Counted from the first letter of the stretch, positions 18,201 to 42,442 are shown. The stretch is 54,275 bases of DNA from Gammaproteobacteria bacterium (GCA_004796365.1 QZLE01000162.1:1-54275); one strand, 5' to 3'. Translations and numbers: made by a program. The notes: generated from the letters alone by a model not told the origin.

Positions 18201-20827
18201 ACATCATCGGTTTGCGGCATATCTAAAATAGTTTCTGGCCGCTTACCTTTGAGCAAAATAAAGATTTTTATCAGTTCTTTGTAAAAATGAATCTTTACAT
18301 ATTTTTCAGGTAAGATAATGCCAAGATCTTGCAACGCATTTCGAGCTATTCCAATAGCCTTTTCACTTTCATTTTGATAACCATAATGCAGAATTTGTTT
18401 AGAATATATTTTTCCTTTTATTTGTGGATATTGCGTTAACTCAACAGCTTTTTTGAACTGGACTTCACCTCGATCATACTTATGAGTTAAAAACAATATT
18501 TCTCCATATTCCATCAGAAGAAATGCCAAGCTATCATTATCTTCGGCAGAGGAATTATCTGGTAAAAATGAGATGGCGTACTGATAATAATTTTCTGCAG
18601 CTTGAAATGCAGCATTAGCTTTTAACCTTTGCCCCAAAGATATATTTAAGCGATGTAATTCAATTCTATCGGTTTCATCTTTTATGCAAGATAACGCATT
18701 ATTGAAGTAGTCGATGTACTCTTCAATATATTCATTCTGCATCCCTTTTAAAACCAAATTGGCTTTTATAATTTTGCCGAATTTAAGATTGAGATTGCTA
18801 AATCTTTCTGAGGATATCTGCCCTCTTACAGCTTGAAGCACCCTGTCGTGAACAAATTTAAATTTATCGCCAACTCTTACGATAAGGTGGAGCTCGATTA
18901 AGCTAATAATCAACTGACGCAGATTGTCTCTGCTTGAAGAAAAGATTTGCTCAATAGTACTTACTGTAAATGATCTGCCGAGAATAGAAAGCTCTATTAA
19001 AAACTCTCTAGTTATTTCATCAAGACTATTTATTCTTCCGATTAGGAAAAAAACCACATCGGAATCTGCCGGTAAATCGGCAATTGCATCCAGGTCAACA
19101 AAAATTTCACCGCCTTCACCTTTATATATAAATTTGTTTTCAAAAATCTGTTGGAAAATTGAAGTTAAATAAAGCGGATTACCTTCTGTTTTGGCATAAA
19201 CAAGTTCAGCAACAGTTTTCACTTTTTCATCAGCACAGGGGACCAGGTCTTTAATCCAATCCTGAATTGACAGCTGATTCAGGTTGGAAAGTGCAATATC
19301 ATTACATGTAACCCCTACTCTAGCTGGGCACTCTAGGAAAGAATTTATTGGCGAAACCGAAGTGATCTCATCATTTCTATATGAAAGAATCATTAATAGA
19401 TTCTTAGGGCCAAAACCAATTATTTCTTCAATCAGAGCAATTGACTCAGAATCAGCCCACTGTAGGTCATCAATAAATAATACAATTGGCCTACCTACAA
19501 TAGATAAATTACATATTATTCGAGCAAATATTCTATTTCTATGAAATAACAGTTCCTGTGGTGATAAATCTGGAAGAGTATGTTTTTCTTGCTCGCCCAA
19601 TATTTCACTCAACTCTGGGATAATGTCTAAAAAGATTTGCCCAAAATCACCAATCGATGAATTGATAATACCTTTCCAGTCATTAGAGTTATCTGTCTCA
19701 ATCTGAATCAAGAAGTCTTTTAAAATATCGAAGATAACTGTGTAGCTCAGCTTACTACTAAACTGATCGAATTTTCCACTTAAAAAGAAGCCATCTTTTT
19801 TCGTTATTGGAACATATAGCTCACGAATTAACGATGTTTTCCCAACCCCGCTATTTCCAGATACTGTAATTAGTTGTGTTGATTCTGAACAACATTCCAG
19901 ACTGGTTATTAATGTACTAATCTCTTTGCCACGCCCATAGATATGACCAGACATTGAAATTATCTCTTCAATATCAGCACTTCCCGGATCAAAATCATCC
20001 AGACTTTTCTTCTTAGAAAGGCACGACTGAATATAACGTAAGTCTTCAATTAGGGTTGAGCAAGTTTGGTATCTTTCAGAGGGTGATTTGTTTAATAACT
20101 TCCCAATAACCTTTCCGATTGAACCATGTATTTCACTATTTATGTCGCTGACAAAACTCGGTAAGGTTGCTATATGGTCATATATGAGCTTTCCCTGATC
20201 ATCGTCATCAAATGGCAGCTTGCCGATTAGTAACTGATAAAATGTAATACCCAATGAGTATAGATCCGATCTATGATCCACTGGTTTATTGACCCTACCT
20301 GTTTGCTCAGGAGAAATGTAAGAAAGCCTTCCTTGGAGAATATTTGGGGCAGCAAAGTCAGCCCTTTCTTCCACAAAGCGACTAGCTAATCCAAAATCAA
20401 TTATTTTAATATTATTTAGCGTCCCATTAATAATAATATTTTCAGGGTTAATATCTTTGTGAACGACACCTGCATTATGAATTTGCAACAAAGCAGATGA
20501 TATATCAATTGCTAAATCTAAGAATGTTTTAACATCAAACCCGGTTACAGGAATGCGGGATGATAATGCAACCATCTTATCGTCATGCATAACGATAAAC
20601 GCCGCATCGGCAGTTTCTTCAAAACTAATATAATTCACTACTTGTGAATTTGATACAAGCTTTCCAATTTCAAACTCGCGCTGAAGATCTTTTCGAGAGC
20701 TTCCATATATTGCTCTTTCACGAGATTTAATAATAACAGTGGCGTTATCAGACTCTCTAATCCCACGATAGACTTGAGTCCTATTACTCTTATGTAGTTT
20801 TTCAACGAGCTTAAAACCACTGTACAT
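15215..20827 (-). CDS. HstK-like multidomain kinase: Ser/Thr kinase-AAA ATPase-helical repeats-GAF-PAS-histidine kinase
   Basis: [26 protein letters not shown]; Walker A GNSGVGKT, Walker B [19 protein letters not shown]; GAF (SVLLIPL...GIIYLEN...AF); PAS; [14 protein letters not shown]. Confidence 0.93.
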   Translation of the reverse strand: [1870 protein letters not shown]

Positions 20828-20951: not shown

Positions 20952-22022
20952 TTAATACTCTTTTGCAAGGTCTTCACCACTAAGTACTCTTGCAGCACCA
21001 TCTCGAAGAGATTCCAGCTCATTCTCACCAGGCATAACTATAACATCAGCTATAAAGCCTACTCTTTGAGTTATTAACTTAGTAAAGTTTTCGCTATGCG
21101 CTACCCCCCCGGTAAGAGCGATTGCGTCAACAATTCCATTAACTACCGCTGCCAGAGATCCGATCTCTTTAGCTATCTGGTATGCCATTGCCTCGTATAC
21201 CTGTTTTGCCAACCTATCACCTTGCTCAATTCTATCCTCTACTTCGCGCAGGTCATTGGTCCCAAGGTATGCAACAAGCCCTCCCTCACCTTTTATCATC
21301 TTTTTAATTTGCTTCTGATCGTACTTACCACTAAAACACAATCCAACCAGACTCCCTGCCGGAATACCACCGCTGCGCTCTGGTGTAAAAGGTCCATCAC
21401 CATCAAGAGCATTATTTACATCGATTACCTTACCATTTTCATGCAGACCAACCGATATCCCGCCCCCCATGTGCGCAACAATAATTGTAGAATTTAAATA
21501 TTCCTTACCAATCTGTTCAGAAACTATTCTTGCCGTACGTTTTTGATTTAATGCATGAAAAATACTTACTCTTGGAAGTAGCGGATTACCTGAGTATCTG
21601 GCTATATTATTTAGTTCATCAACCACGACCGGGTCTACTATATAACTTTCACAATCAGCTTCTTGTGCAATAGCATCTGCAATCAATGCCCCAAGGTTAC
21701 TGGCATGTTCACCCATCTCCGCTGCATACAGATCATTTATCATGGCTTGATTTACTTTGTAGGTTCCGCCTGGGATCGGTTTTAATAACCCTCCGCGCCC
21801 AACTACTGCATCTAAATCAATTATATCAATGTTTCTTGCATTAAGTGCTTCAAGTATCAATAACTTGCGCATATCAAACTGATCAATAAGCTTTTCAAAA
21901 ACTGCCAGCTCTTCATTGTTATGATTAATATTCTCCAACAAAACAATATCTTCACCGCTAAATACCGCAAATTTTGTTGAAGTTGAGCCGGGATTGATAG
22001 TCAAAATCAGGTAATTGGCCAT
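20952..22022 (-). CDS. buk: Butyrate kinase (acetokinase family)
   Basis: INPGSTSTK, VGRGGLLKPIPGGTY, HASNLG, IVDPVVVDE, FHALNQK, AHMGGGISV, DGPFTPERSG, LTGGVAH, PGENE. Confidence 0.95.
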   Translation of the reverse strand: MANYLILTINPGSTSTKFAVFSGEDIVLLENINHNNEELAVFEKLIDQFDMRKLLILEALNARNIDIIDLDAVVGRGGLLKPIPGGTYKVNQAMINDLYAAEMGEHASNLGALIADAIAQEADCESYIVDPVVVDELNNIARYSGNPLLPRVSIFHALNQKRTARIVSEQIGKEYLNSTIIVAHMGGGISVGLHENGKVIDVNNALDGDGPFTPERSGGIPAGSLVGLCFSGKYDQKQIKKMIKGEGGLVAYLGTNDLREVEDRIEQGDRLAKQVYEAMAYQIAKEIGSLAAVVNGIVDAIALTGGVAHSENFTKLITQRVGFIADVIVMPGENELESLRDGAARVLSGEDLAKEY

Positions 22023-22205: not shown

Positions 22206-23357
22206 TTAGAAGCTATAAATAAACTGCAGCATAAACATATCCCAGTATCTATCAAAACTATTTCCTTTATCCGGATTATCTGCTTGCTCTATCATATCGG
22301 CAGAACCACCTTCGATGTTGTGATATTCAGCTTTGATTAAAATACTATGTGTTGGACGCCAGTTAGCACCAATTACATGGGAATTAGTGTAATTATTGTC
22401 TGTTTTACCATTAGAAGTGATATCGTATTTATGGTCATTTCTGATAAACGCACTGAATCTGGCATTAAACATCTTTTCTAACTGAACGTAATAAGCATCG
22501 GAAATGTTTTCATATTCAAATACATTTTCAAATAATCCTGACGAGGTATTTTTGCCACTATAATTCCTGCGTTGATATTCCGCTGTAACAGTCCATGTAT
22601 TAAGATTTAAGCCTGCTGAGAATATATCATAAGAACGTGGACCTTTGTTCACAGAGTTAGGACGGTAGGTTTCATAATCAACCTTTAACCTAGACATGCC
22701 AGCAAAGAACATGTTTTCAGGGGAGTTATACATCACCTTCCACGCAATAAAATTAAGGTCAGGCACATATGAGTCATCTGTATCTAATAGCTTATTGACT
22801 GACATTCTTACCTTGCCTACCTGTGCCTTTGCATTAACCGATCCCAATGGATTTAAATGGTTGAATTCAAGTGCCGCACCTTTGGAGCGCATTAAGCTGT
22901 TTCTAATCCGTTCTGGATAAATTACCTGCGGAAGAACCACACCAGAGTAGGTAGAAGGAATATCTCTTGTTTCATTATAGATTCCCATTGGGATTTTTAG
23001 AAAACCTGCTCTCAAATCTAGCTCGGTTGATCCATTGGCAAACAGATCTACTCCAACCAAGGCATAATCAAGGGCTAAATCCTCCTCGTTAACATACAAA
23101 TCACCGTAGTTACGTGAAATAAGCTGTGTTGAGAAGTAGATACCAGGGTCAGGGGACCAAAGGAAGTTAACCGCTCCCATACTGGAATCAAAACTACCGC
23201 TGGTACTATCGCCCAGGAAGTTATTGCCGGACGATATGGAGAAGCCCTGACTTAGGAAGCCGTGTACCTTAACTTGCCCCAAATCAACTGACGAAGCGCT
23301 TGTAGAGATGATTACAAGAAGCAGCACTGCAAGTACTCTCAAGCTCATCACCGTCAT
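22206..23357 (-). CDS. Putative outer-membrane beta-barrel/porin
   Basis: Signal peptide, HGFLSQG start, LDYA...RAG..KIPMGIYNETRD motif, alternating beta strands, C-terminal Phe (FIYSF). Start uncertain (23348/23357/23381). Confidence 0.72.
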   Translation of the reverse strand: MTVMSLRVLAVLLLVIISTSASSVDLGQVKVHGFLSQGFSISSGNNFLGDSTSGSFDSSMGAVNFLWSPDPGIYFSTQLISRNYGDLYVNEEDLALDYALVGVDLFANGSTELDLRAGFLKIPMGIYNETRDIPSTYSGVVLPQVIYPERIRNSLMRSKGAALEFNHLNPLGSVNAKAQVGKVRMSVNKLLDTDDSYVPDLNFIAWKVMYNSPENMFFAGMSRLKVDYETYRPNSVNKGPRSYDIFSAGLNLNTWTVTAEYQRRNYSGKNTSSGLFENVFEYENISDAYYVQLEKMFNARFSAFIRNDHKYDITSNGKTDNNYTNSHVIGANWRPTHSILIKAEYHNIEGGSADMIEQADNPDKGNSFDRYWDMFMLQFIYSF

Positions 23358-23361
23358 GATA

Positions 23362-23808
23362 TTAGTTAATCTGGAGAACATTTATCTCATCTCCTTTTTT
23401 AACTGATTCAAGATAGCCAATGGCCCCCGGTGTTGAACTAACTGCTTTTATCATCTCCTCTCTGTTATTTACGAATATTGGACCTTCTCCACCACCTGAA
23501 TAGATCACCATATCCCATACCCGCTTAAAATTAATCGGGTAAATATTCATTTGGGAACACACATCAATAAATATTGTGTTGTCATAGTTATAAGTAACTA
23601 GTTTTACGGGAGTACCATCTGGCCATCGGCGCATTCTGCTGGTGAAGATAGCGCGCAGGTTAAACTGTGATATGGCCTGTTGTTGGGTATGATGGTTAAA
23701 GATATAGTCGACAGCAAAAGCGGTTCGAGAAAAGGAAAAGGATAGCACTAGCAGCAGCTGTACCAGCAAAAGCCTGAATCTCTTTTTTACCTTTTTAGCC
23801 GTGAGCAT
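23362..23808 (-). CDS. Small exported protein, PBP/phosphate-binding-like family
   Basis: Signal peptide; LRAIFTSRMRRWPDG, W..VIYSGGG..P, VSSTPGAIGY motifs; co-oriented with and abutting the porin gene. Confidence 0.72.
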   Translation of the reverse strand: MLTAKKVKKRFRLLLVQLLLVLSFSFSRTAFAVDYIFNHHTQQQAISQFNLRAIFTSRMRRWPDGTPVKLVTYNYDNTIFIDVCSQMNIYPINFKRVWDMVIYSGGGEGPIFVNNREEMIKAVSSTPGAIGYLESVKKGDEINVLQIN

Positions 23809-23957: not shown

Positions 23958-26900
23958 TTACTGACAGCTGGAAACCTTGACCCAGTTTCCAGGCTGCCCC
24001 TCTTGCATCACAGACGTAGTATCAGCTGCCTGCCCCAAGTAATCATCACTACCACTTGCATAGTAAAGCACATTGTACTGCAGATAAGCTCTACCAGCTG
24101 CTTCATGATTAGCATTGGTATCAGTAAAGCATAGTTCTTCCTGCTGTTCTGGGCGAGTAATCGTAAACTGCTCAATATTCGACTTAGCTTCTTGCGAGTC
24201 ATATGCAACCAACGATACGCCAAACGGAGACCCTACTGAGATGCCATGCACTGAGTAATCCAATACACAAGTAAAGTTGGTTGTACCTTCGCATACAATT
24301 CCAGTTAAAGCTCCTAGCCCAAGTACTACACGATCAATATCATCATTAACATCAGATGCTACACCTGTAACCACTGCACGGTTGTAATTAAGCTCTGAAA
24401 TCTCATACGACTCAATCACTGGTGGCTGTGGATCAACTGGGCATGATCCCTGAACATAGTTACCTGAACCTACCGGATCTTCTTTCAGACTAACTACAAT
24501 GCTGCCATCTTTACCCAGTTCTTCTCCAGAACCCTGTGCGTACCAAGTTGTTACCTCAGTACCGCCGTAGCAGAAAGTGCCCCAGCAGGTTTCGCCTTCC
24601 ATATTGGTCTCAGAGTAAGCTCTGCCAGCTGATTCGTGCCCAGTAAGAGTTGCTGAGAAATCAGAACACGCTGCAGGTAGTACTTCAACTGTTGTTACTT
24701 GTACTACCCCGTTTTCTTCTGAATCAAGAGCCCAAACTCTAACTTGTTGAAGGCCTGGCTGAACGTTATTTACAGTAAGGCTAAAGTTTTCAGTGCCGTT
24801 TGCTAATTTCCATTCTCCATGACCACCTATGCCAATCATAATCCTGGAAAGATCACCATCAATATCGGATGCTGTGCCTGTTACTGTAACGGTTTGCTCA
24901 CCACCAACAGCATTAATAGTGTCGATAACAGGAGGGTTCATACCAATTGAAAATGAAAGAGATTTATACTCACTCCAATTGTATTCTGCATCAATTGCAT
25001 ATGCTCTAACAATATAATCACCCTTCTCCAGATCAGGAAAGGTATATGTCCAATCGTAGGTACCTTCAGCAATTATGCCTGAGTACACCGTATTTCCAGT
25101 TTCAAGTGAAAGATTAATTATTTCTAGATCACCATTAGCATCAGATGCTGTTCCATAAACTGTCGCACTGTTACCATTTACATTTATGTTAATTGATTCA
25201 ATCTTGGTATCCCAAACTCTTGCACCTGAAATACTATATTTATTGCCATGTCGATCAGACTGCAAGCCAGTTGAATCAGTTATGCGGATATAAACGTTGT
25301 AGTTTGCAGGACCAATGTCTTCATAGGTATATGACCACTCTTCAGTACCATCGACTACAACCCATTCGGTTTCGTTGTGATGAAGTTTTATCTCGATCTT
25401 TTCTATATTACTATCGGCGTCATATGCTGTACCTGAAACTGTCAAAGTTCTTGGGCCTGGGATAGCAGTTTTGCTGGTAATGACCGGTGTAGCACCATCA
25501 ACAACCGTTACAGTTTGTACCCAAATGGTCTCGTTTCCAGATATATCATAAAGACGATAGGTTATTTCATAATCACCAACAGTTGATGTATCAACAGTGC
25601 CAGACACTTCGCGAATTGGATTCGGATCTAGATCATCAACAGGGTATGCACAATCCATTCTTACATCCCCAGGATCGGAATTAAGCTCCACAGATACATT
25701 CTGGTCACAATATAGTCTGGCATCAGGAGGGGTAACATCTTCGATAACCTTAACCAGGGCTTTAACCTCATCAGTGTAACCTTCGCTATCGGTAACAGTG
25801 AAGATAACCTCATAATCACCAGCAATACTATAATCAGCTGGGTTTTCAACTGAAATGCTATCTTCCCATAAGTGCCCATCTACATGGTCGATTGCTATTG
25901 GGTTATAAGGTGTATATACCGGATGACCTTCTTTCTCATCACGGCGATAGGTTTTGAAAATGCGGAAATAATCTTCACTTGCCTCATTGTCGGTCAAGAA
26001 CAACGGAGAATTCTGGTCAAGAACCACCACATGCCTATACATTGCATAAGATGACTCATAGAGATTTCCGTCAAGGTCTGTAACCTCATAGAATACATCA
26101 CTTCTGTTACCTATCTGATCCAGATTGTCCAAAACTGTTCCATAATAGGTAACTCTATCGCTGATATCACCGTCAAGAACATCCCACCCGATATATCCAG
26201 GGTCAACATATGGCTGGTTAACTACAGTAGTAGAATATCCGGAACAACCATATAAGAAATTACATGCATGACCAAGAAGGATTAGCTTAGGTTGTGGATC
26301 TTCAACAACATGCACCAACCGCGTTTCGATAGTTTCATTTCCTGCTGAATCAGTTACTCGGTATTCAACGATATAGTTACCTACAGCACTGGTATTAACA
26401 GCATTAGTCACCTGAATACTGGAAGTAAGGTCACCGTCTTCTACATCATTTGCAGTTGCATTCTCAGGAGTATATGAACCACCCAGACGAACATATTCTT
26501 CCACCTTACCTTGCAATGTGATTGCTGGAGGAATATCCAACGCGCCATCACAAGAGCCATCGGTTACGAAATAGTCTGGAGTTTTCTCAGTAAGAGTTAC
26601 ATTTGTAGCTGTAAATGAATAACCAATCTGCTCATTGGAGCCATTGGCACAAATATACCAGGCATTACAAGTATGGGCACGACCTGCATCACGGTGTTGC
26701 GCAGGAGTTGCAGTAAAGCTATCGCAAGATGCTTTCAGGCTGTTTAGTGCATCAAATGCATTAAGCATTCCATTAGATCTTACAAGACCAACAAGATTGT
26801 CATTAGGAGTTGCAGTATTCATAAGAATAGACTTTATCGCCACATGGTCTAGTTGCGGAGCCTCTGCTTTCATTAAAGCCGCTACACCAGCTACATGAGG

Positions 26901-28187
26901 TGTCGCCATTGAAGTGCCCCCGTAAAATCCATATTGTTCTCCAGGAAGCGTGCTTTTGGTATGTACCCCAGGTGCTGCAATATCGGTGTGGTGATAGCCG
27001 CGGTTGGAGAAGTCAGCCAACACGCCCTGATGGTTAATTGCAGCTACGCTGATAATATTTGGGAGGTTAAGGCTTGCCGGAACAGCAAAACTGTACTCAT
27101 CCAGGTTGGTATATTCATTACCTGCTGCTGCGGCAAATACCATTCCGGAATTACCAGCTGCCTCAATAGCATCACTGTATGCAGCGGTTATAAGTTCTGC
27201 AATAACCGCATCAGATAAGTTCATTCCATAGCTATTATTTGAAACAGCAGCACCATTATCAGCAGCATAGAGAATGCCCTCAATAATATCTGAGGTAAAA
27301 CCACCACCATTCTCATCAAGGATCTTTACCCCCATTAGCTGAGCTGACCAGGCGACACCAACAATGCCACCATCATTTGCGGAAGCTGCGATTGTACCGG
27401 CGCAGTGGGTTCCATGACCTAAATCATCCATTGGATCACCATCACGGTTAACAAAGTCATAACCGTGAACATCATCAATATATCCATTACCATCATCATC
27501 AATACCGTTACCTGCAATCTCCCCCGGGTTAGTCCAGATATTTTTACTTAGATCGGAGTGGTTATAATCAATACCTGAGTCGATAACAGCAACCACAATC
27601 TCACTTGCATCAGTTCGAATATCCCATGCTTCTGGTGCGTTAATATCAATTCCTGCAACAGGCTCAACAGTTTCAATTACATTTCCATTTTCGTCAGTGA
27701 TATCGAATGATTGGCCTGTATTATTAAGCCCCCAAAGCTGATCATTTAATTCGCTTGAGGTAGTAGCCTGAGCCTTTAATCTAAGATTTGGAACTACATA
27801 CTCTACATTTGGATCCTGTTGCAATAGAGAAAACATATCGCTTAAGCTTTGCCCCTTTTCAAAACTAACAACCTTCCATTGCGAGAAAAGCTGGGCTTGC
27901 GCCGCCAACTTTTTCATTGGCTTAAAGAAAGACTTGATATTTTCAATTACGTTAGATTGCATGGTTGGCACAGCAAAGTTTGCTGATACTTCTTTGAATT
28001 TAACCAAAAGCTGATTAGCTTTAATATCACCTTTTTTAGCAAGCTCATCCAAATCAAGTTTGAATTTATTTATTTCAGCCATAGAAGGGTTAGTAGGGAT
28101 TACAGGTTTGGTGATATTTCCTGGTTGTCCTGCGAAAACATTGCTCAGGTAAAAAGCAAAAAGGAATAAAACGAGTATACGTCTCAT
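23958..28187 (-). CDS. Secreted S8 (subtilisin-like) serine protease 1 with DUF5011/Ig-like repeats and three PHB-depolymerase-type binding-like modules
   Basis: GGAG RBS + ATG 28187, signal peptide MRRILVLFLFAFYLSNVFA, propeptide, triad VIDSG / HGTHCAGTI / GTSMATPHVAG; ATANDVEDGDLT...YRVTDSAGN (DUF5011-like); H..AGRA modules. Confidence 0.92.
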   Translation of the reverse strand: MRRILVLFLFAFYLSNVFAGQPGNITKPVIPTNPSMAEINKFKLDLDELAKKGDIKANQLLVKFKEVSANFAVPTMQSNVIENIKSFFKPMKKLAAQAQLFSQWKVVSFEKGQSLSDMFSLLQQDPNVEYVVPNLRLKAQATTSSELNDQLWGLNNTGQSFDITDENGNVIETVEPVAGIDINAPEAWDIRTDASEIVVAVIDSGIDYNHSDLSKNIWTNPGEIAGNGIDDDGNGYIDDVHGYDFVNRDGDPMDDLGHGTHCAGTIAASANDGGIVGVAWSAQLMGVKILDENGGGFTSDIIEGILYAADNGAAVSNNSYGMNLSDAVIAELITAAYSDAIEAAGNSGMVFAAAAGNEYTNLDEYSFAVPASLNLPNIISVAAINHQGVLADFSNRGYHHTDIAAPGVHTKSTLPGEQYGFYGGTSMATPHVAGVAALMKAEAPQLDHVAIKSILMNTATPNDNLVGLVRSNGMLNAFDALNSLKASCDSFTATPAQHRDAGRAHTCNAWYICANGSNEQIGYSFTATNVTLTEKTPDYFVTDGSCDGALDIPPAITLQGKVEEYVRLGGSYTPENATANDVEDGDLTSSIQVTNAVNTSAVGNYIVEYRVTDSAGNETIETRLVHVVEDPQPKLILLGHACNFLYGCSGYSTTVVNQPYVDPGYIGWDVLDGDISDRVTYYGTVLDNLDQIGNRSDVFYEVTDLDGNLYESSYAMYRHVVVLDQNSPLFLTDNEASEDYFRIFKTYRRDEKEGHPVYTPYNPIAIDHVDGHLWEDSISVENPADYSIAGDYEVIFTVTDSEGYTDEVKALVKVIEDVTPPDARLYCDQNVSVELNSDPGDVRMDCAYPVDDLDPNPIREVSGTVDTSTVGDYEITYRLYDISGNETIWVQTVTVVDGATPVITSKTAIPGPRTLTVSGTAYDADSNIEKIEIKLHHNETEWVVVDGTEEWSYTYEDIGPANYNVYIRITDSTGLQSDRHGNKYSISGARVWDTKIESININVNGNSATVYGTASDANGDLEIINLSLETGNTVYSGIIAEGTYDWTYTFPDLEKGDYIVRAYAIDAEYNWSEYKSLSFSIGMNPPVIDTINAVGGEQTVTVTGTASDIDGDLSRIMIGIGGHGEWKLANGTENFSLTVNNVQPGLQQVRVWALDSEENGVVQVTTVEVLPAACSDFSATLTGHESAGRAYSETNMEGETCWGTFCYGGTEVTTWYAQGSGEELGKDGSIVVSLKEDPVGSGNYVQGSCPVDPQPPVIESYEISELNYNRAVVTGVASDVNDDIDRVVLGLGALTGIVCEGTTNFTCVLDYSVHGISVGSPFGVSLVAYDSQEAKSNIEQFTITRPEQQEELCFTDTNANHEAAGRAYLQYNVLYYASGSDDYLGQAADTTSVMQEGQPGNWVKVSSCQ

Positions 28188-28361
28188 GTTTGTCTCCAGA
28201 TTATGTATTATATCAAGACAGGGGTTATGTCCTGAAAAAGTTCGTGTCCAAATAAACCAAAAAGTGTCCGTTCTTAATGGATTGACCATTTATTAGCAAC
28301 TTTAAAATCAACCTCCAGGCATGTCCAAGTCCTGGAAACTGCAAAAAGTAAACCACAGCAC

Positions 28362-28383
28362 AATGTGAACTGCATCACATTTT
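28362..28383. promoter_or_regulatory. CRP-type palindromic site upstream of protease 1
   Basis: AATGTGAACTGCATCACATTTT = TGTGA-N6-TCACA with consensus flanks. Confidence 0.7.
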
Positions 28384-28501
28384 TACTGTATCGAATTCTA
28401 ATGACGAATAATCTTTTGTCAACATATCTATCGGTTTTTTAACTGAAATTTAATATATTTTTACAAGCCAGTTAGAGAAATTCTATCTATTTAAGGCGCA
28501 T

Positions 28502-28533
28502 AAAAAAACAGGGCTGCAAAGCAACCCTGTTAT
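28502..28533 (-). terminator. Rho-independent terminator downstream of protease 2
   Basis: Minus strand AACAGGGTTGC-TTT-GCAGCCCTGTT followed by a T run. Confidence 0.85.
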
Positions 28534-28578
28534 TAGCTTGGTTTATTACCTACCCAAGACCACAATAGCTTTATTTAT

Positions 28579-31500
28579 CTATGGGCAGCTGGATACCTTT
28601 ACCCAGTTTCCAGGTTGACCTTGCTGCTCCAAAGATGTTGTATCCCCATCCATTCCAAGGTAGTCACCAGAACCAAGAGCATACACAAGAACATTGTATC
28701 TCATCTCTGCACGGCCAGCACTAACATGCTCACTGTTAGTAGCTGTAAAGCAGGTTTGAATAACTTCTTCCCATACTACTGTGAACTCAGCAGAGTCAGC
28801 TACATTTTCAGCAAGGTCAATTGCACGAACCTTCCAAGTCATTGTTGCGTAGTCGGTTCCCTGAAGCTGCATATCGCATCTGAACTGATCACCTCCAGTG
28901 TTATTACATTCAACCACACCGATGTCATCAATTCTGTATAGGAATACCCTGTCAAGATCATCATCAACATCAGAGACAGTTACGGTAACAACCTCAACTG
29001 TTCCTTCTCTTACTTGCTGAATATTGCTTATTACCGGTGGCACAGATGCCTGTTGCTCCGGACGAACAAGGGTGAAATGTTCAATATTTGAGTATTCACC
29101 ACGCAGATCGCGTGCTGATACATGCACTGAAAGTTCTGCACCTACCTCAAAGCCAAACTCTTCATAATCTAGGGTACAAGTAAAGCTTTCTTTCCCTTCA
29201 CACAGAACTCCACTAACGGCACCAAGACCAAGAACCACATAATCGATATCATTATTCGGGTCTGAAGCAACACCAGTTACTACAGCCTGGTAGTAGCTAT
29301 TTTCAACAATCTGGTACGACTCAATTACCGGAGGCATTGGCAGATCCGGGCATTCTCCTTGCTCATAGTTACCTGATCCAACTGGATTTTCTATTAGAGT
29401 CACAACGGTGCTACCATCTTTGCCAAGCTCTTCACCTGATCCTTGCGCGTACCATGTTGTTACTTCAGTACCGCCGTAGCAGAAGGTACCCCAGCAAGTT
29501 TGCCCCTCAATTGTGGTTTCAGAATAAGCTCTTCCAGCAGATTCGTGTTGCGCAAGTGTAGCTGTAAACTCGGCACATGAAGCAGGTAATACTTCAACTG
29601 TAGTTTCTTCTACAGTTCCGTTATCTTCAGCATCCAGCGCCCAGATTCTTACCTGCTTAGTTCCTGGTGCAATACCTGTTACGGTTAGACTGAAGTTTTC
29701 GGTGCCATTAGCAATGTGCCATTCCGGACTATCACCGATACCGATAAGGATTCTGGCAAGATCGCCATCAGGATCTGAAGCACTACCAGTAACCGTTACT
29801 GATAGCTCACCACCTACAACATCAAAGGCGTCAATCACTGGCTGGTTAAATCCAACTCTTGCAGTAATAGTTTCCTTGGGGCTGATATTTCCTGCAGCAT
29901 CATATGCATACACATTAATATCGTAAGAACCCTTACCCATATCCTCGAAAGTATATGTCCAGTTATAGGTGCCATCAGCTACAATATCTTGATGCATAAT
30001 GCCATCAATTACAATTGAGAGCTGTACCCTATCAAGATCACCAGTTGCATCACTAGCTGTTCCAGAAACTATGATATCTTTACCTACTATTTCAACATTT
30101 ACGGTTTCAATCTTAGGATCCCAAACTAGAATTTCACGGACTGTCCCGATACCTTTATATGGGTTTGAAACCAGGCCTGTAGAATCAGTAACACGCGCTC
30201 TTGCGGTATAACCATAGACATCCGGCTCAACGTCATTAATTGTAACTGACCACTCTTCGGTACCGTCAACTTCTACCCAATCATTCCAACCTTCAACTCG
30301 ATGAACGAGAACCTCAACCTTTTCAATATTGTTGTCAGGATCATAAGCAGTTCCTGAGATAGTTATGGATCGCGGACCACCTTCAGCAACCATGCTGGTA
30401 AGAGATGGGGTTGATCCATCAACTACAGTCACATCCATTGTCCAGGTATCTGAGTTACCAGAAAAGTCAGTAACTGTGTACACAACTTGATATTCACCTG
30501 GTGTTGTAATATCAACATTGCTTACAAATTCTCTGGTTGGATATGGATCCAATTCATCGTCTGCAATAATGCAGAATTTGGTTGCTTCCCAATCAGAATT
30601 CAGTTCGACAATCTTGTGCTGATCACACTGAGGTTTGATTTCAGGTGGTGTTATATCTTCAATAACCTGAACCAGAGAGTAAACCTGATCAGTATAACCA
30701 TCACTGTCTGTTGCAGTAAATGTAACCAGATAATCTCCAGCTACAGAATAATCAACGGGATTATCAATAGTGAAGTTATCTTCGCTCAAAGTACCATCAA
30801 CATGATCAACTGCGTCTGGAGCATTTGCAAAGTACTCTGGGTGGTCACCTCCAGGATTTACAGAGCCATTATCACGGCGATAAGTTTGAAATGTGTGATA
30901 ATATTCACCACCCTCAACGCTTGTGATTAGCGGGTTATCATGGTGTACTACATAGACATATCTGAAGTATCCTTCTTCTTTATAATATGTGCCTTCAAGA
31001 TCAATTAGTTCATAGTGAACCATACCTCTGTTGCCAATTGCGTCCAACTTATTCAGAACATCACCTGTTGTAGTAACACGATCAGTAAGATCACCTTGAA
31101 GTATGTCATAAGCGATATAACCAGGCTCAGCAAACTCAGTGTTGACAACAACTGTCATTGGCCAACAAGGACCAATAAACAGACAGTAAGGATCATTAAG
31201 CACAATGCTTGGCGTGGAGCTGGCGCGAACATGAATCAGTCTGGTTTCAATTGCTGAGTTACCTGATGCATCAGTTACCGAATATTTAATAATATAATCG
31301 CCAGCAACAGAGGTATCTACCTCACCCTGAATCTGAACCTGAGCAGTTAAATCACCATCTTCAGCATCTGTGGCTGTAAAGCCTGGTGCATTATAGGCAG
31401 CGCCAACTCTTACAAATTCTTCAACCAAACCTTCAAGTGTGATTACAGGTGGAACGTCCAAAGCTGCATCACAAGATCCGTCATTTACAAAATATCCAGG

Positions 31501-33168
31501 TGATTTTTCTGTAAGGGTAACTAAAGCGCTACCATTTGTGCCAAGATCATGTGAAGATCCCTGAGCATACCATCTTGTAACCGTAGTACCCCCCCAGCAG
31601 AAAGTCCCCCAACAGGTGCCGCCTTCAGTTGTTGTCTCACTATAAGCTCTACCAGCAGTCTCATGCTGTGAAGCTGTAGATGTGAACTCTGGGCAGTTAG
31701 ATCTTGCACCCTCAAGTGCAGCTTTAGCATTTACCAATCCACCACTTCTTACTTTACCCGCAAGCTGAGACATTGGTTTAGAGGTATTCATAAGGATTGC
31801 CTTGGATGCAGCTGCAGACAAAGAAGGTGTTTCCGCTTTCATTAGTGTAGCAACACCTGCTACATGTGGTGCCGCCATTGAGGTACCGTTATAAAAATCA
31901 TACTGGTTCCCAGGAATGGTACTTCTAACCAGAACACCTGGCGCAGCAATATCAGTGCTGTGAAAACCGTAGTTGCTAAATGAAGGTATTTCACCATTTG
32001 GATCCATGGCAACAACACTAACAACATTCGGTAGATTCATTCCTGATGGAACCGGATATTTGTCTTCATCAAGGTTAGCTTTTTCGTTTCCTGCAGCAGC
32101 TACAAAAAGCATGTCCGCTTCACCAGCAGCTTGAATAGCGTCATGATATGGTTTTAGGGCTAGTTCTGCGTACATTGAATCCGGCAAAAGCATTCCATAA
32201 CTATTATTGGAAACCATGGCACCGTTATCAGCTGCGTAAAGAATCCCTTCAATAATATCTGATGTATAACCCCAGCCTTCGTCATTAAGGACCTTTACAG
32301 CCATCAACTGTGCACTCCAGGCAACACCGGTAATACCAGTTCCGTTGTTGCCTTCTGCAGCAATGGTTCCGGCACAGTGAGATCCATGACCATGGACATC
32401 CATCGGGTCACTATCATGATATGCAAAGTCATATCCGTTAACATCATCAATATAACCATTGCCATCGTCATCAATGCCATTACCAGCAATCTCACCAGGG
32501 TTGATCCATATATTAGAACTAAGGTCTGGGTGGTTATAGTCAACACCTGTATCTATAACTGCTACAACAACATCGCTGGCCTCGGTGCGGATATCCCAGG
32601 CTTCAGGGGCATCAATATCAACATCTGCAGTTGCTTCAAAAGAAAAGGAGTAGCCATTGCCGTCATCATATGTGATTGTACCCCCCTGGTTATCAAGCCC
32701 CCACAGCTCTCCACCCATATCATTTGGTGTACTCTGTACCTTCAAGCGAAGGTTAGGCGCGACATATTCTACATTAGGGTCATTTCTTAGCGCGACAAAC
32801 TTATTGGAAATGCCATCACCACTATCAAAAGTCACAACTTTCCAGCTGGAGATCTTTTCTTTGATACCTGCAAGTTTGGCCGCCGGATTAAAAATATCCT
32901 TTACAGATTTAAAACCAGAAAAAGTTTGCAGAACCGATGCTGGTTGCTGAATTGAAGGTTTGAATTTAACCAAAAGCTCATTTGCCTTCATTTGCCCTGT
33001 TTTGATCATCTTGTCGAAATCAGGCTTCCAGTTTGGATCAATTTTGGCAGGTTTAATATTTGAAAGTAACGCAGGGGTTGTCTGGTCATGTTCAATCGGA
33101 CCAGCCTGTCCTGCAAAGGATGCAGTTGCATGTGCAGCAAATAATGCGAAAGCTAATATACGTTTCAT
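28579..33168 (-). CDS. Secreted S8 serine protease 2, paralog of protease 1 with one extra Ig-like domain
   Basis: Signal peptide MKRILAFALFAAHATASFA; triad VIDTG / HGSHCAGTI / GTSMAAPHVAG; same domain order as 23958..28187. ATG 33168 (or 33174). Confidence 0.92.
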   Translation of the reverse strand: MKRILAFALFAAHATASFAGQAGPIEHDQTTPALLSNIKPAKIDPNWKPDFDKMIKTGQMKANELLVKFKPSIQQPASVLQTFSGFKSVKDIFNPAAKLAGIKEKISSWKVVTFDSGDGISNKFVALRNDPNVEYVAPNLRLKVQSTPNDMGGELWGLDNQGGTITYDDGNGYSFSFEATADVDIDAPEAWDIRTEASDVVVAVIDTGVDYNHPDLSSNIWINPGEIAGNGIDDDGNGYIDDVNGYDFAYHDSDPMDVHGHGSHCAGTIAAEGNNGTGITGVAWSAQLMAVKVLNDEGWGYTSDIIEGILYAADNGAMVSNNSYGMLLPDSMYAELALKPYHDAIQAAGEADMLFVAAAGNEKANLDEDKYPVPSGMNLPNVVSVVAMDPNGEIPSFSNYGFHSTDIAAPGVLVRSTIPGNQYDFYNGTSMAAPHVAGVATLMKAETPSLSAAASKAILMNTSKPMSQLAGKVRSGGLVNAKAALEGARSNCPEFTSTASQHETAGRAYSETTTEGGTCWGTFCWGGTTVTRWYAQGSSHDLGTNGSALVTLTEKSPGYFVNDGSCDAALDVPPVITLEGLVEEFVRVGAAYNAPGFTATDAEDGDLTAQVQIQGEVDTSVAGDYIIKYSVTDASGNSAIETRLIHVRASSTPSIVLNDPYCLFIGPCWPMTVVVNTEFAEPGYIAYDILQGDLTDRVTTTGDVLNKLDAIGNRGMVHYELIDLEGTYYKEEGYFRYVYVVHHDNPLITSVEGGEYYHTFQTYRRDNGSVNPGGDHPEYFANAPDAVDHVDGTLSEDNFTIDNPVDYSVAGDYLVTFTATDSDGYTDQVYSLVQVIEDITPPEIKPQCDQHKIVELNSDWEATKFCIIADDELDPYPTREFVSNVDITTPGEYQVVYTVTDFSGNSDTWTMDVTVVDGSTPSLTSMVAEGGPRSITISGTAYDPDNNIEKVEVLVHRVEGWNDWVEVDGTEEWSVTINDVEPDVYGYTARARVTDSTGLVSNPYKGIGTVREILVWDPKIETVNVEIVGKDIIVSGTASDATGDLDRVQLSIVIDGIMHQDIVADGTYNWTYTFEDMGKGSYDINVYAYDAAGNISPKETITARVGFNQPVIDAFDVVGGELSVTVTGSASDPDGDLARILIGIGDSPEWHIANGTENFSLTVTGIAPGTKQVRIWALDAEDNGTVEETTVEVLPASCAEFTATLAQHESAGRAYSETTIEGQTCWGTFCYGGTEVTTWYAQGSGEELGKDGSTVVTLIENPVGSGNYEQGECPDLPMPPVIESYQIVENSYYQAVVTGVASDPNNDIDYVVLGLGAVSGVLCEGKESFTCTLDYEEFGFEVGAELSVHVSARDLRGEYSNIEHFTLVRPEQQASVPPVISNIQQVREGTVEVVTVTVSDVDDDLDRVFLYRIDDIGVVECNNTGGDQFRCDMQLQGTDYATMTWKVRAIDLAENVADSAEFTVVWEEVIQTCFTATNSEHVSAGRAEMRYNVLVYALGSGDYLGMDGDTTSLEQQGQPGNWVKVSSCP

Positions 33169-33364
33169 AATCATTGTCCAATAAGTTAGTGTCCAAAACC
33201 TATTAGATTCCTTTCCAATGAGGTTATAAGTTAATCTGCTTTCAGCCTTAAACCGGGAAAACAGAAACATTTAGACTGATTCAGTTTTTGAGCAGGGAAA
33301 CAAAAATAAACCCATCTAAGGGACTAGTCCATTTAGCCACAAGCGAATTTTAACCACAAAAAAA

Positions 33365-33429: not shown

Positions 33430-36400
33430 TTATATCTTTTTAATAATGCCTATCTGCTTTTCAATACGCTTGGCTGAGACTGGTATTGATGTCTTTAGCT
33501 CCTGAGCGAATACCGAGACTCTGAATTCTTCCAGCATCCATCGTAGTTGCACCACTTCTTTTATATCGCCATATTCCTGTAGCAACTTTTGATACTGCTC
33601 TGCAAAAGGAAACACCTCATTCATCCACTGGGCGTCGCGTTTTGGGTCGTATTCCAACTTTTCTGCCCTGACTTCTAAAGCATTAATAAAGCGAGGAAGG
33701 TGTTCTAGCCATTCAATTGGTGTTGCACTAATAAATCCTGAATAAATCAAAGATGTGAGTTGTGCGTCTATTTCCTGATAGATCTTTACAAACGATAAAT
33801 TAACACAGCCTTTTAGAGACTTGCGCAATTTGTGAGCAGATGCGAGCGCTTTTTCTGCCACAGCTGCGATGCGGTTCAAAACCGGAATTAGCTCTGCCTT
33901 GTTATTTTCACACAGCAGCTCATATTCACATTTGCTGCGCGGTAGTTCTTTATCGCTGATAAATACCTTTTCAAATACTGCATCGGTTATATCATTTCGT
34001 AGCTCTTCTTTTTTGCCAATTGCAGTATAATACAGTGCCATACGCTCAAAGTTTGGGATGTTTTTATTTATATACCTGGCCTGCTCTTTAAAGCGAATTT
34101 GCAGCAATCGTAACAACCCTTCTTTGCTACGCTGTATCGCATGTTCACGATCAAACATAAGCTTAAGCGAAATAATATCACCATGAACTACGATTGCCGG
34201 AAACGCATTAATTAATACGCCGCCACGATTCACCTCCAGTTCCTTTGGCAATTCATCAAAATCCCACCCTTTTATGTCATCGCGCTCGAATGGCGAATCT
34301 ACTTCTGCATTCAACGCGAGCTTGATCTGCATAGCAAAGTCACGCTGCAGTTTTATTAGATCGCGCCCTGCTCCAAGTAGTTTACCATTTTCATCCACCA
34401 CACGGATATTCATCAACAGATGGGGAGGAATCTGTACCTCTTGCCACATATCACGACTTACTTCCACTCCTGTCATCCGTTTCAGTTCACGAGATATAAA
34501 CGACAGCATCGCACCCTGTTTATCCTGCGGCAAAGCACACTCCATTAGCGCCTTGGCAAATTCTGGAACCGGTACAAAATTTTTGCGCGCTTTCTTAGGA
34601 AGCGCCTTGATGAGATGGATTAGTTTTTCCTCCAGCATTCCCGGTACCAGCCAGTTTAACTGTTCCTGCGAAATCTGATTCAGTGTTACTAATGGGGCAG
34701 TTATGGTTACGCCATCCCGAGGGTGCCCTGGCTCAAAATGGTAGTCGAGCATAAACGGGATATCATCAAGGATAATTCGGTCTGGAAATTGCTCCTCGGT
34801 AACATCTTCAGCAGCATGTTTCATTAACTCATCTTTGGTCATTACCAGGGAGTTCAAAGTCTTATCATCAGCCTTTTTCAGCCACTTTTCCAGTGCCGCC
34901 TTACTGTTGATTTGCGAAGGAATTCGCTCGTCGTAGAAATCAAATATTCTGTCTTCATCAACCAGAATATCCTTGCGGCGCGATTTGGATTCAAGCAGGT
35001 TTATCTCTTCCAAAGTCTCACGATTCTTGCGAAAAAAAACTGCACGCAAATCAATATCCTGATTAACAAGCGCGCTACGGATAAACACCTCACGCGCAGT
35101 CACAGGATCCAACTGACCAAAGTTGACCTTTTTCTTCGGATTAATAGTCAGACCGTAAAGAGTAACCCTGTCAAAGGCGATTACCTGCCCACGCTTCTTT
35201 TCCCAATGCGGTTCGAAATAATGGTGCTTACAAAGGTGAGCACCAACCTGCTCGATCCATTGCGGTTCAATTTTAGCTACGGTGCTGGCAAAAAGATTTG
35301 AGGTTTCGATAAGCTCTGAAGCCATTATCCATTTGGGTTGTTTTTTTACCAGGGTTGAGCCGGGGAAGATACGCAGTTTGTTATTTCTGGCACCGGTATA
35401 TTCGTTTCTGTCGGTGACAACCGCAACATTGCCTAGCAAACCTGCCAATAATGACCGATGTATTGACTCATATTCTGCAGGCTGCTCATTGATCTTGAAT
35501 TTATGATCACATACCTGTTGCTTTAACTGCTTATAGACATCGATCCATTCACGCATACGTAAATAGGAAATAAAGTTTTCCTTACACCATTTGCGTAATT
35601 TGTTCTGCGAGAGCTGCTTGTTCTGTTTATGATACTCGTTCCACAGATTTTGATAGAACTGAAAATCTGAAAGTTCTGTATTAAACTGGCGATGTGCTTC
35701 ATCGGCAGCTCCCTGCCTTTCAAAGGGACGGTCACGCGGATCCTGAGTTCCCAAGGCACTGCCAATTATCAGAAGTTCATGCAGGCAGTTGTTCTCAGCC
35801 GCCGCCAAAAGAATTCTGGAGATGCGCGGATCTACCGGAAAGGTAGCTAGTATGCGCCCTACTTTTGTTATCTCGTTGTTAATATCAACTGCACCAAGTT
35901 CCTGCAGCAGTCGATATCCATCATTAATATATCGACTATCTGGCGGCTCAACGAATGGGAAGTCCTCAATATTACCTAAACGCAGAAACTTCATCTGTAG
36001 AATAACCGAAGCCAGATTGGTACGCAGTATCTCCGGCTGAGTAAACTCAGACTGGTTTAGAAAATCATCCTCAGAATATAGGCGGATACATACACCGGAG
36101 CTTACACGTCCACAGCGCCCCATTCTTTGATTGGCACTAGCCTGTGAAACCTGTTCTATCGGCAAGCGTTGCACCTTGGTACGGTAACTATAGCGGGAAA
36201 TCCGCGCCCTACCGGTATCAATCACATATTTTATACCAGGAACGGTCAAAGACGTCTCGGCAACATTAGTTGCAAGTACAATTCTTCTGCCACCATGAGG
36301 GGCAAATACCTTCATCTGTTCTGCCGGGGAAAGGCGTGCAAATAGCGGTACTATCTCTGCTGTCGGTTGTGATTTTCTTAAGAAATCGGCAGCTTCGCGG

Positions 36401-40653: not shown

Positions 40654-41517
40654 TTATACAGCCTGACCGCAGTGGCGGAAGAATATTTTCTGCAAAGCCA
40701 TCTTTAGCTGCGCCTGAATCTCTGGGATTTCATTTAGTATGTTTTTCCCCTCTGAGTATTGCTGTGCAATTTCCGGCATTGAATCTATCTGTGTAAGAAT
40801 TTCTATCTGCTCATAGTTACAGTAATCAGCGACATCGCTATTCCCGATATTGGCTTTATTAATGATCACTCCAAATGGCAAACCAAGCTTGCGTAAGGTA
40901 TCGACCGCTATCTTCAGGTCATTTAATCCAAATGGCGTTGGTTCTGTAACAAGTATCACAAAGTCAGAACCGTCAACCGCTGTGATCATTGGACACGATG
41001 CCCCTGGCGGGCAATCAATAATATTTACCCTGCTATCCTTTATCCCTTTTTTCACCTCTTTAATTAACGGGGGGGACATGGTTCTGCCTATCTCCAGAGT
41101 TCCAGATACGACCTTTATCACATTACCGGTTTTTGTTAAGTGCTTTCCTTTATTAATACGCCCGATTTGAAATGGCGCAGATGTAATAGCCTCATTAGGG
41201 CAAACAAAATAACATCCGCCACAGTCATGACACATCTCATCCATAACCACTGTTGTGTCTGCAATTCTCATCAGTGCATTAAACTGACAAAACTTTTCGC
41301 AAGCACCGCAGCCAATACATTGCTCACTCTCTATCCGTGGCACTTCTGTAAAAAAGTCATTGGTTACAGTAAATTTAGGCTTCAAGAAAATCAGGCCGTT
41401 TGGTTCTTCAACATCGCAGTCGTAATAGCTGACATTTGTATTGGCAGCAACCGCAAGCGCCGTTGAGATTGTGGTTTTCCCTGTTCCGCCCTTTCCTGAT
41501 GCTATAGATAAAATCAA
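40654..41517 (-). CDS. Second MinD-superfamily P-loop ATPase with inserted 2x[4Fe-4S] ferredoxin domain
   Basis: ASGKGGTGKT, DCDVEEPN, CIGCGACEKFC, CHDCGGCYFVCP, DCPPGASCP, TEPTPFGLNDL; TTG start with GAGGA RBS. Confidence 0.93.
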   Translation of the reverse strand: MILSIASGKGGTGKTTISTALAVAANTNVSYYDCDVEEPNGLIFLKPKFTVTNDFFTEVPRIESEQCIGCGACEKFCQFNALMRIADTTVVMDEMCHDCGGCYFVCPNEAITSAPFQIGRINKGKHLTKTGNVIKVVSGTLEIGRTMSPPLIKEVKKGIKDSRVNIIDCPPGASCPMITAVDGSDFVILVTEPTPFGLNDLKIAVDTLRKLGLPFGVIINKANIGNSDVADYCNYEQIEILTQIDSMPEIAQQYSEGKNILNEIPEIQAQLKMALQKIFFRHCGQAV

Positions 41518-41553
41518 TGTACTATCCTCTGCCTACTTTTTTCTCCAACCAGA

Positions 41554-41904
41554 CTAAAGAGCCTGCTCCCTTGTAATTTTTTCCAGATTGCCAAGCAGCT
41601 GCTGGCTAATCGCCTCTTTAACCGTAATTTCATCACTTACAAACATCTCGACAGATGAGCCTTCCAGCAAATTAAATGCTTTGGGGCCGAATCTTCCTGA
41701 TATAAGCACATCTGCCCCGCTGTTTATAACAGTCTTTGCAGCCTGAACACCTGCGCCCTGAGCTGCATTTAGGTTGACAGCATTATCAACCACATTAAAG
41801 TTATCCTTTTCTGTGTCGAATAAGATAAACATCGGAGCTCTGCCAAATCTTGGGTTTACCCTTGAATCCAAATCACCACTATCAGCTGTTACTGCTATAA
41901 TCAT
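41554..41904 (-). CDS. Orange protein (ORP)-like NifB/NifX family protein
   Basis: IAVTA....LDS.V.PRFGRA..F, NAAQGAGVQAA, ISGRFGPKAF; GAGGAG RBS before ATG 41904. Confidence 0.88.
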   Translation of the reverse strand: MIIAVTADSGDLDSRVNPRFGRAPMFILFDTEKDNFNVVDNAVNLNAAQGAGVQAAKTVINSGADVLISGRFGPKAFNLLEGSSVEMFVSDEITVKEAISQQLLGNLEKITREQAL

Positions 41905-42304: not shown

Positions 42305-42327
42305 AAAGATTTCCTCTGTTTATAGAT

Positions 42328-42344: not shown

Positions 42345-42442
42345 AACTTTATACGGCAGCAATTTTCATTATAGAAGATTGAATATAAAGGACTTAATAC
42401 TAGTTAAACTAGTACATCTATATGGAGGAAAAAGAGAACTAA

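Follow-up and report, generated by a model that had tools for sequence, protein, structure and literature searches.

Tandem subtilases of a gammaproteobacterium carry repeated modules homologous to the substrate-binding domain of polyhydroxyalkanoate depolymerases

Extracellular polyhydroxyalkanoate (PHA) depolymerases (PhaZ) are defined by a layout in which a signal peptide is followed by a catalytic domain, a linker and a substrate-binding domain (SBD) (Knoll 2009, PMC2666664; review PMC11893044). The SBD of a characterised PhaZ is described as adsorbing to several polyesters independently of catalysis (review PMC11893044, citing Kasuya 1996), and a described example occupies residues 581-635 of ALC24_4107 from Alcanivorax sp. 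24 (PMC7187450). Among subtilases, the deep-sea deseasin MCP-01 is reported to bind its insoluble substrate through a C-terminal domain, which raises its efficiency (PMC11294657). Subtilases with accessory binding domains and the PhaZ SBD are both known kinds. Here we describe a locus where the two are joined. Two neighbouring open reading frames (ORFs) on the minus strand of a 54,275-nucleotide contig from a Gammaproteobacteria bacterium (GCA_004796365.1, QZLE01000162.1:1-54275; the whole of this stretch is called the window below) are tandem paralogues encoding secreted subtilases of about 1400-1530 residues, each with three copies of a Cys-bounded module. A literature search returned reviews, engineered SBD fusions and depolymerase papers and nothing on protease-SBD proteins, in agreement with a preliminary description of this DNA, which knew of no characterised protein joining a family S8 peptidase to an SBD. 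The natural S8-SBD combination, the three-copy stalk, a long four-Cys variant of the module and its spread over a mostly proteolytic secretome all appear to be undescribed.

The three modules of each protease translate as had been proposed, except that the ranges first given for the middle modules take in one residue past the closing Cys and those for the last modules include the stop codon. By translation and alignment, the modules of gene 1 (23958-28289, an ORF of 1443 residues; all window features described here lie on the minus strand) are located at 26550-26726 (module 1, 59 residues, four Cys, directly after the catalytic domain), 24441-24668 (module 2, long, 76 residues, four Cys, with a CWGTFC insert) and 23964-24131 (module 3, short, 56 residues, two Cys, ending one residue before the stop). 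Those of gene 2 (28579-33270, an ORF of 1563 residues) are at 31471-31695 (module 1, long, 75 residues, four Cys), 29350-29577 (module 2, long, 76 residues, four Cys) and 28585-28752 (module 3, short, 56 residues, two Cys, at the extreme C-terminus). There are accordingly two types, a short one of 56-59 residues with two Cys (four in gene 1 module 1) and a long one of 75-76 residues with four Cys and the extra CWGTFC insert. Alignment of all six leaves 14 invariant columns (C, F, T, H, A-G-R-A, Y, A, G-S, G and C), and in the six-frame translation of the window the pattern H..[AS]GRA occurs six times, always within a module.

A profile built from the six window modules only (A1) was compared with 1.84 billion cluster representatives and matched 383 proteins at E<=1e-3, 169 at E<=1e-10 and 28 at E<=1e-30, some of which are sized and laid out like ordinary extracellular PHA depolymerases. 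It matches the C-terminal 55-65 residues of P0095, P0091, P0148 and P0146, which score 214, 249.9, 254.9 and 466.4 bits, respectively, on NF050058, the NCBI model of extracellular type-1 short-chain-length PHA depolymerases (cut-off 150). P0123, P0092, P0103 and P0019 reach 131-141 bits on this model, under its cut-off, and all but P0123 pass TIGR01840. The type-2 enzymes, covered by NF050059 (cut-off 280), are represented by a 408-residue frame of G318, a complete genome from this class: residues 28-340 of the frame reach 380.5 bits, and a module matched by a second profile (A2) occupies residues 353-407. A2 combines the six window modules with 15 from other proteins, three of these 15 coming from papain-like (PF00112) proteins and not from PhaZ. 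Gene 1 module 1 is 39% identical to the G318 SBD (blastp, E 1e-9), and hhalign aligns A1 to it with a probability of 97.3%. Since a profile made from the window alone finds the C-terminal 55-65 residues of curated-model depolymerases of both catalytic types, the six modules are, at the level of homology, members of the PhaZ SBD family, as the preliminary description had recognised from their residue pattern. Invariant positions of the A2 alignment are the first C, H, A, R, G, G and the last C; those kept in at least 90% of the sequences are G13, A15, L, E and G. The canonical SBDs (the type-2 one of G318 and the type-1 ones of P0095, P0091 and P0148) and the window modules are alike in their length of 55-65 residues, in the bounding Cys pair, in H..AGRA and GS..LG, and in occurring at the very C-terminus. 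Automatic names of the matched clusters include 'poly(3-hydroxybutyrate) depolymerase', 'poly(hydroxyalkanoate) depolymerase family esterase' and 'PKD repeat protein'. When the best 150 of the 383 proteins were classified with four queries, P0108, P0112 and P0153 were at first taken as PhaZ-like, and they are papain-like by Pfam; P0144 was also discarded as PhaZ-like, its match covering a short stretch only.

Scans of the two window proteins found no Pfam or NCBIfam model covering the modules, no carbohydrate-binding family over them in Pfam at E<=0.1, and no sorting-signal family in Pfam or NCBIfam. AlphaFold2 models of gene 2 modules were built from alignments of 21 sequences, gene 1 module 2 being included for the long type. 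The short terminal module is modelled as a small beta structure with one short helix (predicted local distance difference test, pLDDT, 95.6), and in long module 2 the elements follow one another in the same way, with the central hairpin lengthened by the CWGTFC insert that it holds (pLDDT 94.6). A structural comparison, which the preliminary description had proposed together with profile alignment, returned no Foldseek match in the PDB at E<=1e-3 for either model. VIA-align gave a best Z of 2.9 for the short model, and a sequence search of the PDB with the module profile gave nothing below E 0.35, the T-cell-receptor chain found at that value being dismissed as a chance match. ESM Atlas clusters (a 55-residue 'hypothetical protein', 0.95, with low recognition, and CBM_5_12, 0.75) were treated as uninformative.

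The other half of the architecture is a subtilase head. The catalytic domains are at 26727-27644 in gene 1 (PF00082, E 6.3e-60, 203.4 bits) and at 31696-32616 in gene 2 (E 1.6e-63, 215.2 bits; gathering cut-off 21.8), and both hold the Asp-His-Ser triad and the oxyanion Asn in order and within canonical motifs (D237, H292, N391 and S460 in gene 1; D240, H295, N395 and S464 in gene 2), which bears out the earlier description of two secreted S8 proteases with intact triads. The solved chain closest to the gene 1 domain is deseasin MCP-01 (PDB 3vv3, E 3e-64). Neither protein matches PF10503, TIGR01840, NF050058 or NF050059 at E<=0.1, and from their sequences we assign them as peptidases, not PHA depolymerases. 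The proteins of the two genes are 55% identical across 1383 aligned residues, the alignment starting at Met35 of each ORF; because they align from Met35 and a signal-peptide-like stretch is found there, translation likely starts at Met35 in gene 1 (28187) and at Met33 or Met35 in gene 2 (33174 or 33168). The gene 1 stretch, MRRILVLFLFAFYLSNVFAG (28128-28187), was read directly from the sequence. A 1531-residue form of the gene 2 protein is present in a collection of 5.8 billion proteins. Upstream of the S8 domain, the region 27645-28127 of gene 1 has a weak prodomain match only, PF22148 (Fervidolysin_NPro-like) scoring 19.1 and 19.2 bits in the two proteins, under its cut-off of 21.

The preliminary description saw in the pair a candidate polyester-targeted protease system, and the idea of a dedicated tandem system did not hold. 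In the genome to which the window belongs (2.77 Mb in 201 contigs, 82.8% complete), A1 gives 57 matches in a genome profile search and 59 modules in 28 frames with hmmsearch, and A2 gives 58 modules in 29 frames at 1e-3; these module counts, as well as the PhaZ counts given below, are floors because many frames are truncated where a contig ends. The same module and stalk thus stand on 28-29 frames with at least four kinds of head. A Pfam scan of the 28 frames (E<=1e-5) found nine Peptidase_S8 heads (genes 1 and 2, C82, C88, C111, C112:37268 and three consecutive frames on C130), two Peptidase_C25, one beta-lactamase fold (PF00144), one Esterase_PHB and 15 frames with no catalytic family, several of the latter being fragments at contig ends; nine of the 14 S8 matches of the genome fall in module-bearing frames. 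Position goes with type: 23 of the 58 modules end within three residues of the C-terminus, 21 of them short and with two Cys, 28 are internal, 21 of them long and with four Cys, and seven come after a signal peptide. The tandem pair is one instance of a genome- and lineage-wide pattern and not a special system.

The genome also has a module-bearing PhaZ of its own, matched by A1 (contig C62, 5513-9208, locus L016; 258.8 bits on NF050058). Its last 331 residues are 56% identical to and colinear with the gene 2 tail, and the stalk plan is the same in this protein and in the window proteins (long module, DUF5011, long module, Ig repeats, short terminal module), whereas its head is a type-1 PhaZ catalytic domain and theirs is S8. 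Over its last 339 residues the gene 2 protein shares 66% identity with the tail of the C112:40779 protein, the head of which has no Pfam family, and the gene 2 tail is also 56% identical to that of a divergent S8 protein. The subtilases of C130 and C88, on the other hand, are 57-59% identical to gene 2 in their heads and only 33-37% in their tails. With tail identity high across unlike heads and low between similar S8 heads, these comparisons argue that heads and tails have separate histories, one kind of anchor stalk having been shuffled between heads. When the segments between modules were grouped by single linkage, the Ig linkers that they have in common governed the outcome, and only the small components were informative.

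Several observations on these frames stand apart. Module frames ending at contig ends include C10:5967-6536, C62:12055-12852 and frames on C81, C122, C128, C158, C164 and C186, probably because the assembly breaks at the repeats formed by modules and DUF5011 domains. C10:3608-4951, C166:7926-9029 and C93:764-1825 encode small secreted proteins of 350-450 residues with one module after the signal peptide and another at the C-terminus; the core of 200-300 residues between them matches no Pfam family, and such proteins could be pure PHA-surface binders or uncharacterised enzymes.

Outside this genome the module is concentrated in one family. All four other genomes of the family have matches (27, 66, 44 and 21), and 36 genomes drawn from as many other families of the class have none. 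Nine genomes match in a 400-genome sample of the class, and outside the family the tally is six of 397, three unpublished genomes (G043, G299 and G311) included. Outside the family the module is found mostly on PhaZ, as in G318 with its single module-bearing PhaZ. G101 has two module-bearing PhaZ frames (197.9 and 234.6 bits on NF050058) together with one S8 protein that has a single terminal module and one M6 metalloprotease that has two; since G101 lies outside the family, protease-SBD fusions are not confined to that family. In the 5.8-billion collection, 189 proteins were found at E<=1e-3 among 7998 scored candidates. A hand count of precomputed Pfam families in the best 120 of these 189 module proteins gave 36 with S8, 15 with reprolysin-type M12B, 11 with PF10503, six with PF00144, five with C13, four with C1, two each with C25 and M6, one each with M64 and M10/astacin, and 37 with no catalytic family. 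The preliminary description had left room for the architecture being common and already characterised: it is common among relatives (36 of the best 120), whereas no paper describing it was found. Database names of module proteins are only 'hypothetical protein' or 'DUF5011 domain-containing protein', and 'MAG: DUF5011 domain-containing protein [Agarilytica sp.]' is the name given to seven of the 15 with a reprolysin-type head. Module proteins with PF00144 may be esterases rather than peptidases, given that a family-VIII esterase is reported to hydrolyse polyester bioplastics (PMC13533575).

A search of named genomes for loci related to gene 2 (query protein P0002), which reaches close relatives only, returned ten, and all ten come from metagenome-assembled genomes with PHB, PHBH or PHBV in their titles, at 41-56% identity ('Gammaproteobacteria bacterium isolate PJM12_PHB_gam1', 'PJM12_PHB_gam2', 'BHT14_PHBH_gam1' and 'Cellvibrionaceae bacterium isolate PHBVgamm5'). 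Deep-sea PHA plastispheres are described as dominated by uncultured Gammaproteobacteria (order QZLD01), Colwellia and Agarilytica, each dominant group encoding more than ten secretable PHA depolymerases (Omura 2024, PMC10817984); the main text of that paper does not contain the words protease, substrate-binding or binding domain.

The explanation to which we incline, with moderate confidence, is that the modules hold a secretome made up largely of proteases on the surface of PHA, where coat proteins or adsorbed proteins are digested. Each gene encodes a secreted deseasin-type subtilase set on a long Ig-like stalk, with a signal-peptide-like start and a probable propeptide, and the three disulfide-bounded modules would form a multivalent anchor adsorbing the protease to PHA, either native storage granules from dead cells or PHA plastic. 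The anchored protease would digest the protein layer of native granules, along with whatever other protein has adsorbed to this hydrophobic polymer; removal of the coat would expose the polyester to the ten or more PHA depolymerases of the cell, proteolysis at the surface would supply nitrogen on a nitrogen-free carbon source, and anchoring would keep the enzymes from diffusing away. Across genome and lineage alike, the same anchor stalk is combined with many secreted heads, mostly peptidases. Native PHB granules are reported to have a surface layer made of proteins only (Bresan 2016, PMC4879537), and we favour surface-anchored proteolysis because the SBD adsorbs without catalysis, the granule coat is protein, and MCP-01 attacks an insoluble substrate. 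A bolder form of this explanation, which we offer tentatively and think rather doubtful, is that an uncultured marine family of Gammaproteobacteria has equipped the majority of its secreted peptidases, of the serine, cysteine and metallo classes, as well as other hydrolases, with PhaZ-type anchors, its whole degradative secretome thereby assembling on PHA and these bacteria being specialised scavengers of native granules (carbonosomes). Anchored proteases would then strip the phasin/protein coat and harvest nitrogen, and mostly unanchored or cell-bound depolymerases would take the carbon.

A number of facts weigh against adsorption to PHA as the role of the modules, and some of them favour the strongest alternative, that the modules have been re-used for another ligand, as a general anchor to particles or surfaces (proteinaceous detritus, chitin, mineral or cell envelope), the tie to PHA being only historical. 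We consider this alternative unlikely. One argument for it comes from the depolymerases themselves. This genome has 18 matches to NF050058, ten of them above the cut-off, and only the C62 frame among them carries the module, a floor as about seven of these frames run off contig ends. The sister genome G002, which is 100% complete, has 69 module matches in 34 frames and 21 PhaZ matches in 18 frames, and modules are found in three of these 18 (1255, 557 and 699 residues). The anchor in this genus is mainly on non-depolymerases and most PhaZ frames of the genus are without a module, while a simple PHA anchor might be expected on depolymerases first. Re-use would also agree with the existence of two positional subtypes, including the lineage-enriched long four-Cys form, the specificity of which may have drifted; the long internal type was seen only in this genome and its relatives (P0009 and P0065 among them), no systematic search having been made elsewhere. 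Finally, the protease closest to the S8 head is a deep-sea enzyme that degrades collagen and has a binding domain directed at collagen. Against re-use, a genuine PhaZ of this genome has the same tail (56% identity), the residues common to canonical SBDs are kept in all six copies, the named relatives all have PHB, PHBH or PHBV in their isolate names, and Pfam at E<=0.1 gives no carbohydrate-binding family in the modules. Three further points temper adsorption to PHA. The PhaZ side of the comparison consists of proteins passing NCBI curated models and not of experimentally characterised PhaZ sequences. The protein lists were ranked by summed score, which favours multi-module proteins of the lineage and under-samples ordinary depolymerases with one SBD. 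The link to PHA plastic rests on the isolate names of relatives and not on data about this genome. All that goes beyond the homology of the modules we infer.

We regard as improbable a second alternative, in which the modules serve the producer, by retention on the cell or in the biofilm matrix, by secretion or sorting through the C-terminal copy, or by folding and stability of the stalk. It draws on position: besides the 23 of 58 modules that end within three residues of the C-terminus in this genome, the last module ends equally close to it in most of the best 150 of the 383 representatives, and some proteins have a copy directly after the signal peptide. However, canonical PhaZ also end with the SBD, which makes terminal position a family trait, copies are internal as often as terminal (28 internal), and no known sorting-signal family was matched in the Pfam and NCBIfam scans. 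A sorting role of the type IX secretion system or PEP-CTERM kind for the terminal module was set aside on the same two grounds, the ending of canonical PhaZ and the missing sorting family.

The preliminary description spoke of a polyester-targeted protease and pointed to S8 enzymes that hydrolyse polylactide; the idea that the subtilase heads themselves hydrolyse polyester, with SBDs delivering them, finds no support here, the head being closest to a collagenolytic deseasin and the same anchor being present on Cys- and metallopeptidases. To our knowledge, no S8 enzyme has been reported to cut PHB. Although subtilisins, like proteinase K, depolymerise poly-L-lactide (PLLA) and adsorption matters there (PMC11178483), and PhaZ SBDs are said to adsorb to several polyesters, some of them uncleavable by the enzyme (PMC11893044), polyester-cleaving heads are very improbable here, as unrelated Cys (C25, C13 and C1) and metallopeptidases (M12B and M6) share the anchor and are unlikely all to be polyesterases, the genome already has ten PhaZ catalytic matches above the curated cut-off, and PLLA is reported as undegraded at the deep-sea or shore sites of Omura 2024 (PMC10817984).

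Some of the depolymerase frames deserve mention in their own right. Two long frames, C112:34052-37168 and C2:12821-15991, have PhaZ catalytic matches below the cut-off, and at their ends a Gly-rich stretch is followed by a hydrophobic helix and then a basic tail, an arrangement that by eye resembles GlyGly-CTERM or a similar cell-anchor signal; the C112 frame is directly upstream of two module-bearing genes (C112:37268-40411 and 40779-43943). C138:20635-22959 is a 775-residue frame with two separate type-1 PhaZ catalytic matches, both above the cut-off, and G002 has similar two-headed PhaZ frames (C44, 834 residues; C18, 1533 residues).

The stalks of the two window proteins are built on one plan: signal-like stretch, putative propeptide, S8, module, four DUF5011, three Ig-like repeats, module, one or two Ig-like repeats, module. 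The earlier statement that DUF5011-type and Ig-like repeats separate the modules was confirmed with Pfam and a hidden Markov model (HMM) of our own. Pfam recognises three stretches of PF16403 (Bact_surface_Ig-like, DUF5011) in gene 1 and four in gene 2, and the HMM, purpose-built from 16 PF16403 stretches, four DUF5011-type domains in each protein; Big_7, Big_13 and Y_Y_Y Ig-type families are also matched. In gene 1 the four DUF5011-type Ig-like domains (three Pfam stretches, four by our HMM) are at 25503-26522, three Ig-like repeats with the motif G(T/S)A(S/Y)D at 24669-25472 (Y_Y_Y and Big_13 matches and motif positions) and one more (TGVASD, placed by motif position) at 24132-24440, four such repeats in all. 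In gene 2 the four DUF5011-type domains (Pfam and our HMM) are at 30424-31443, three Ig-like repeats (Big_7 and Big_13 matches) at 29578-30393 and two more (alignment and motif positions) at 28753-29349, one more than in gene 1 at this place, giving five.

Between the genes, consensus scans found a terminator-like hairpin with an 11-bp stem and a T run just past the gene 2 stop (28507-28531) and a near-consensus promoter-like site upstream of gene 1 (TTGACA-16-TAGAAT, 11 of 12, 28395-28422), because of which we read the pair as two putative transcription units rather than an operon. Directly downstream of gene 1, the frame 22206-23381 encodes a 391-residue exported protein that ends in Phe and looks like an outer-membrane barrel, and it is overlapped by a 148-residue exported protein (23362-23808), both with no Pfam match at E<=1e-4. 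The frame 20952-22022 (356 residues) matches the C-terminal half only of the acetate kinase family (profile positions 177-335 of 392) and may be a truncated or divergent acyl-kinase, and 15215-20827 encodes a cytoplasmic sensor of 1870 residues with Ser/Thr protein kinase, AAA_16 ATPase, GAF, PAS and histidine-kinase ATPase domains. Upstream of gene 2, 33430-37323 encodes an HrpA-like helicase (1297 residues, TTG start, GETGSGKT and DEAH motifs read by eye), which seems unrelated to the proteases.

PHA is a universal bacterial storage polymer and one of the leading marine-degradable plastics, and its breakdown is explained almost entirely via depolymerases. If proteases and other hydrolases do anchor to PHA, removal of surface proteins may control PHA turnover in sediments and on plastics, and natural multivalent polyester anchors, including the long disulfide-stapled variant, would be available for enzyme engineering. 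If the whole secretome assembles on the polymer, the module would be a secretome-wide address label and not an accessory of one enzyme class. The profile of about 58 columns offers a simple sequence marker of a lineage-specific, putatively PHA-associated secretome, the module having no entry in Pfam, NCBIfam or the PDB.

Known systems, some of them made in the laboratory, come close to the proteins described here. Deseasin MCP-01 of Pseudoalteromonas sp. SM9913 is, like them, a multidomain subtilase, and its catalytic domain is the nearest to theirs, but it has P-proprotein and PKD domains that bind and swell collagen where the window proteins carry PhaZ-type modules, and they are two to three times longer than it; in a Pfam scan the P-domain was unmatched and PKD_4 appeared only at E 0.028, so the window proteins do not have the deseasin layout. 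Compared with canonical PhaZ, the modules sit on an S8 peptidase and not on an alpha/beta-hydrolase, each protein has three copies, of which two are internal, and the long variant has a second disulfide-type Cys pair in its CWGTFC insert; the stalk consists of DUF5011 and Ig domains, whereas the linkers described for PHA depolymerases are Fn3, Thr-rich or cadherin-like (PMC11893044). Engineered fusions, such as SBD-sfGFP on PHB (PMC13718197) and plastic-binding lytic polysaccharide monooxygenases (PMC11835289), are reported to work on the same principle, a binding domain carrying a foreign protein to a polyester. Those are laboratory constructs, whereas the fusions of the window type are natural, multivalent and secretome-wide.

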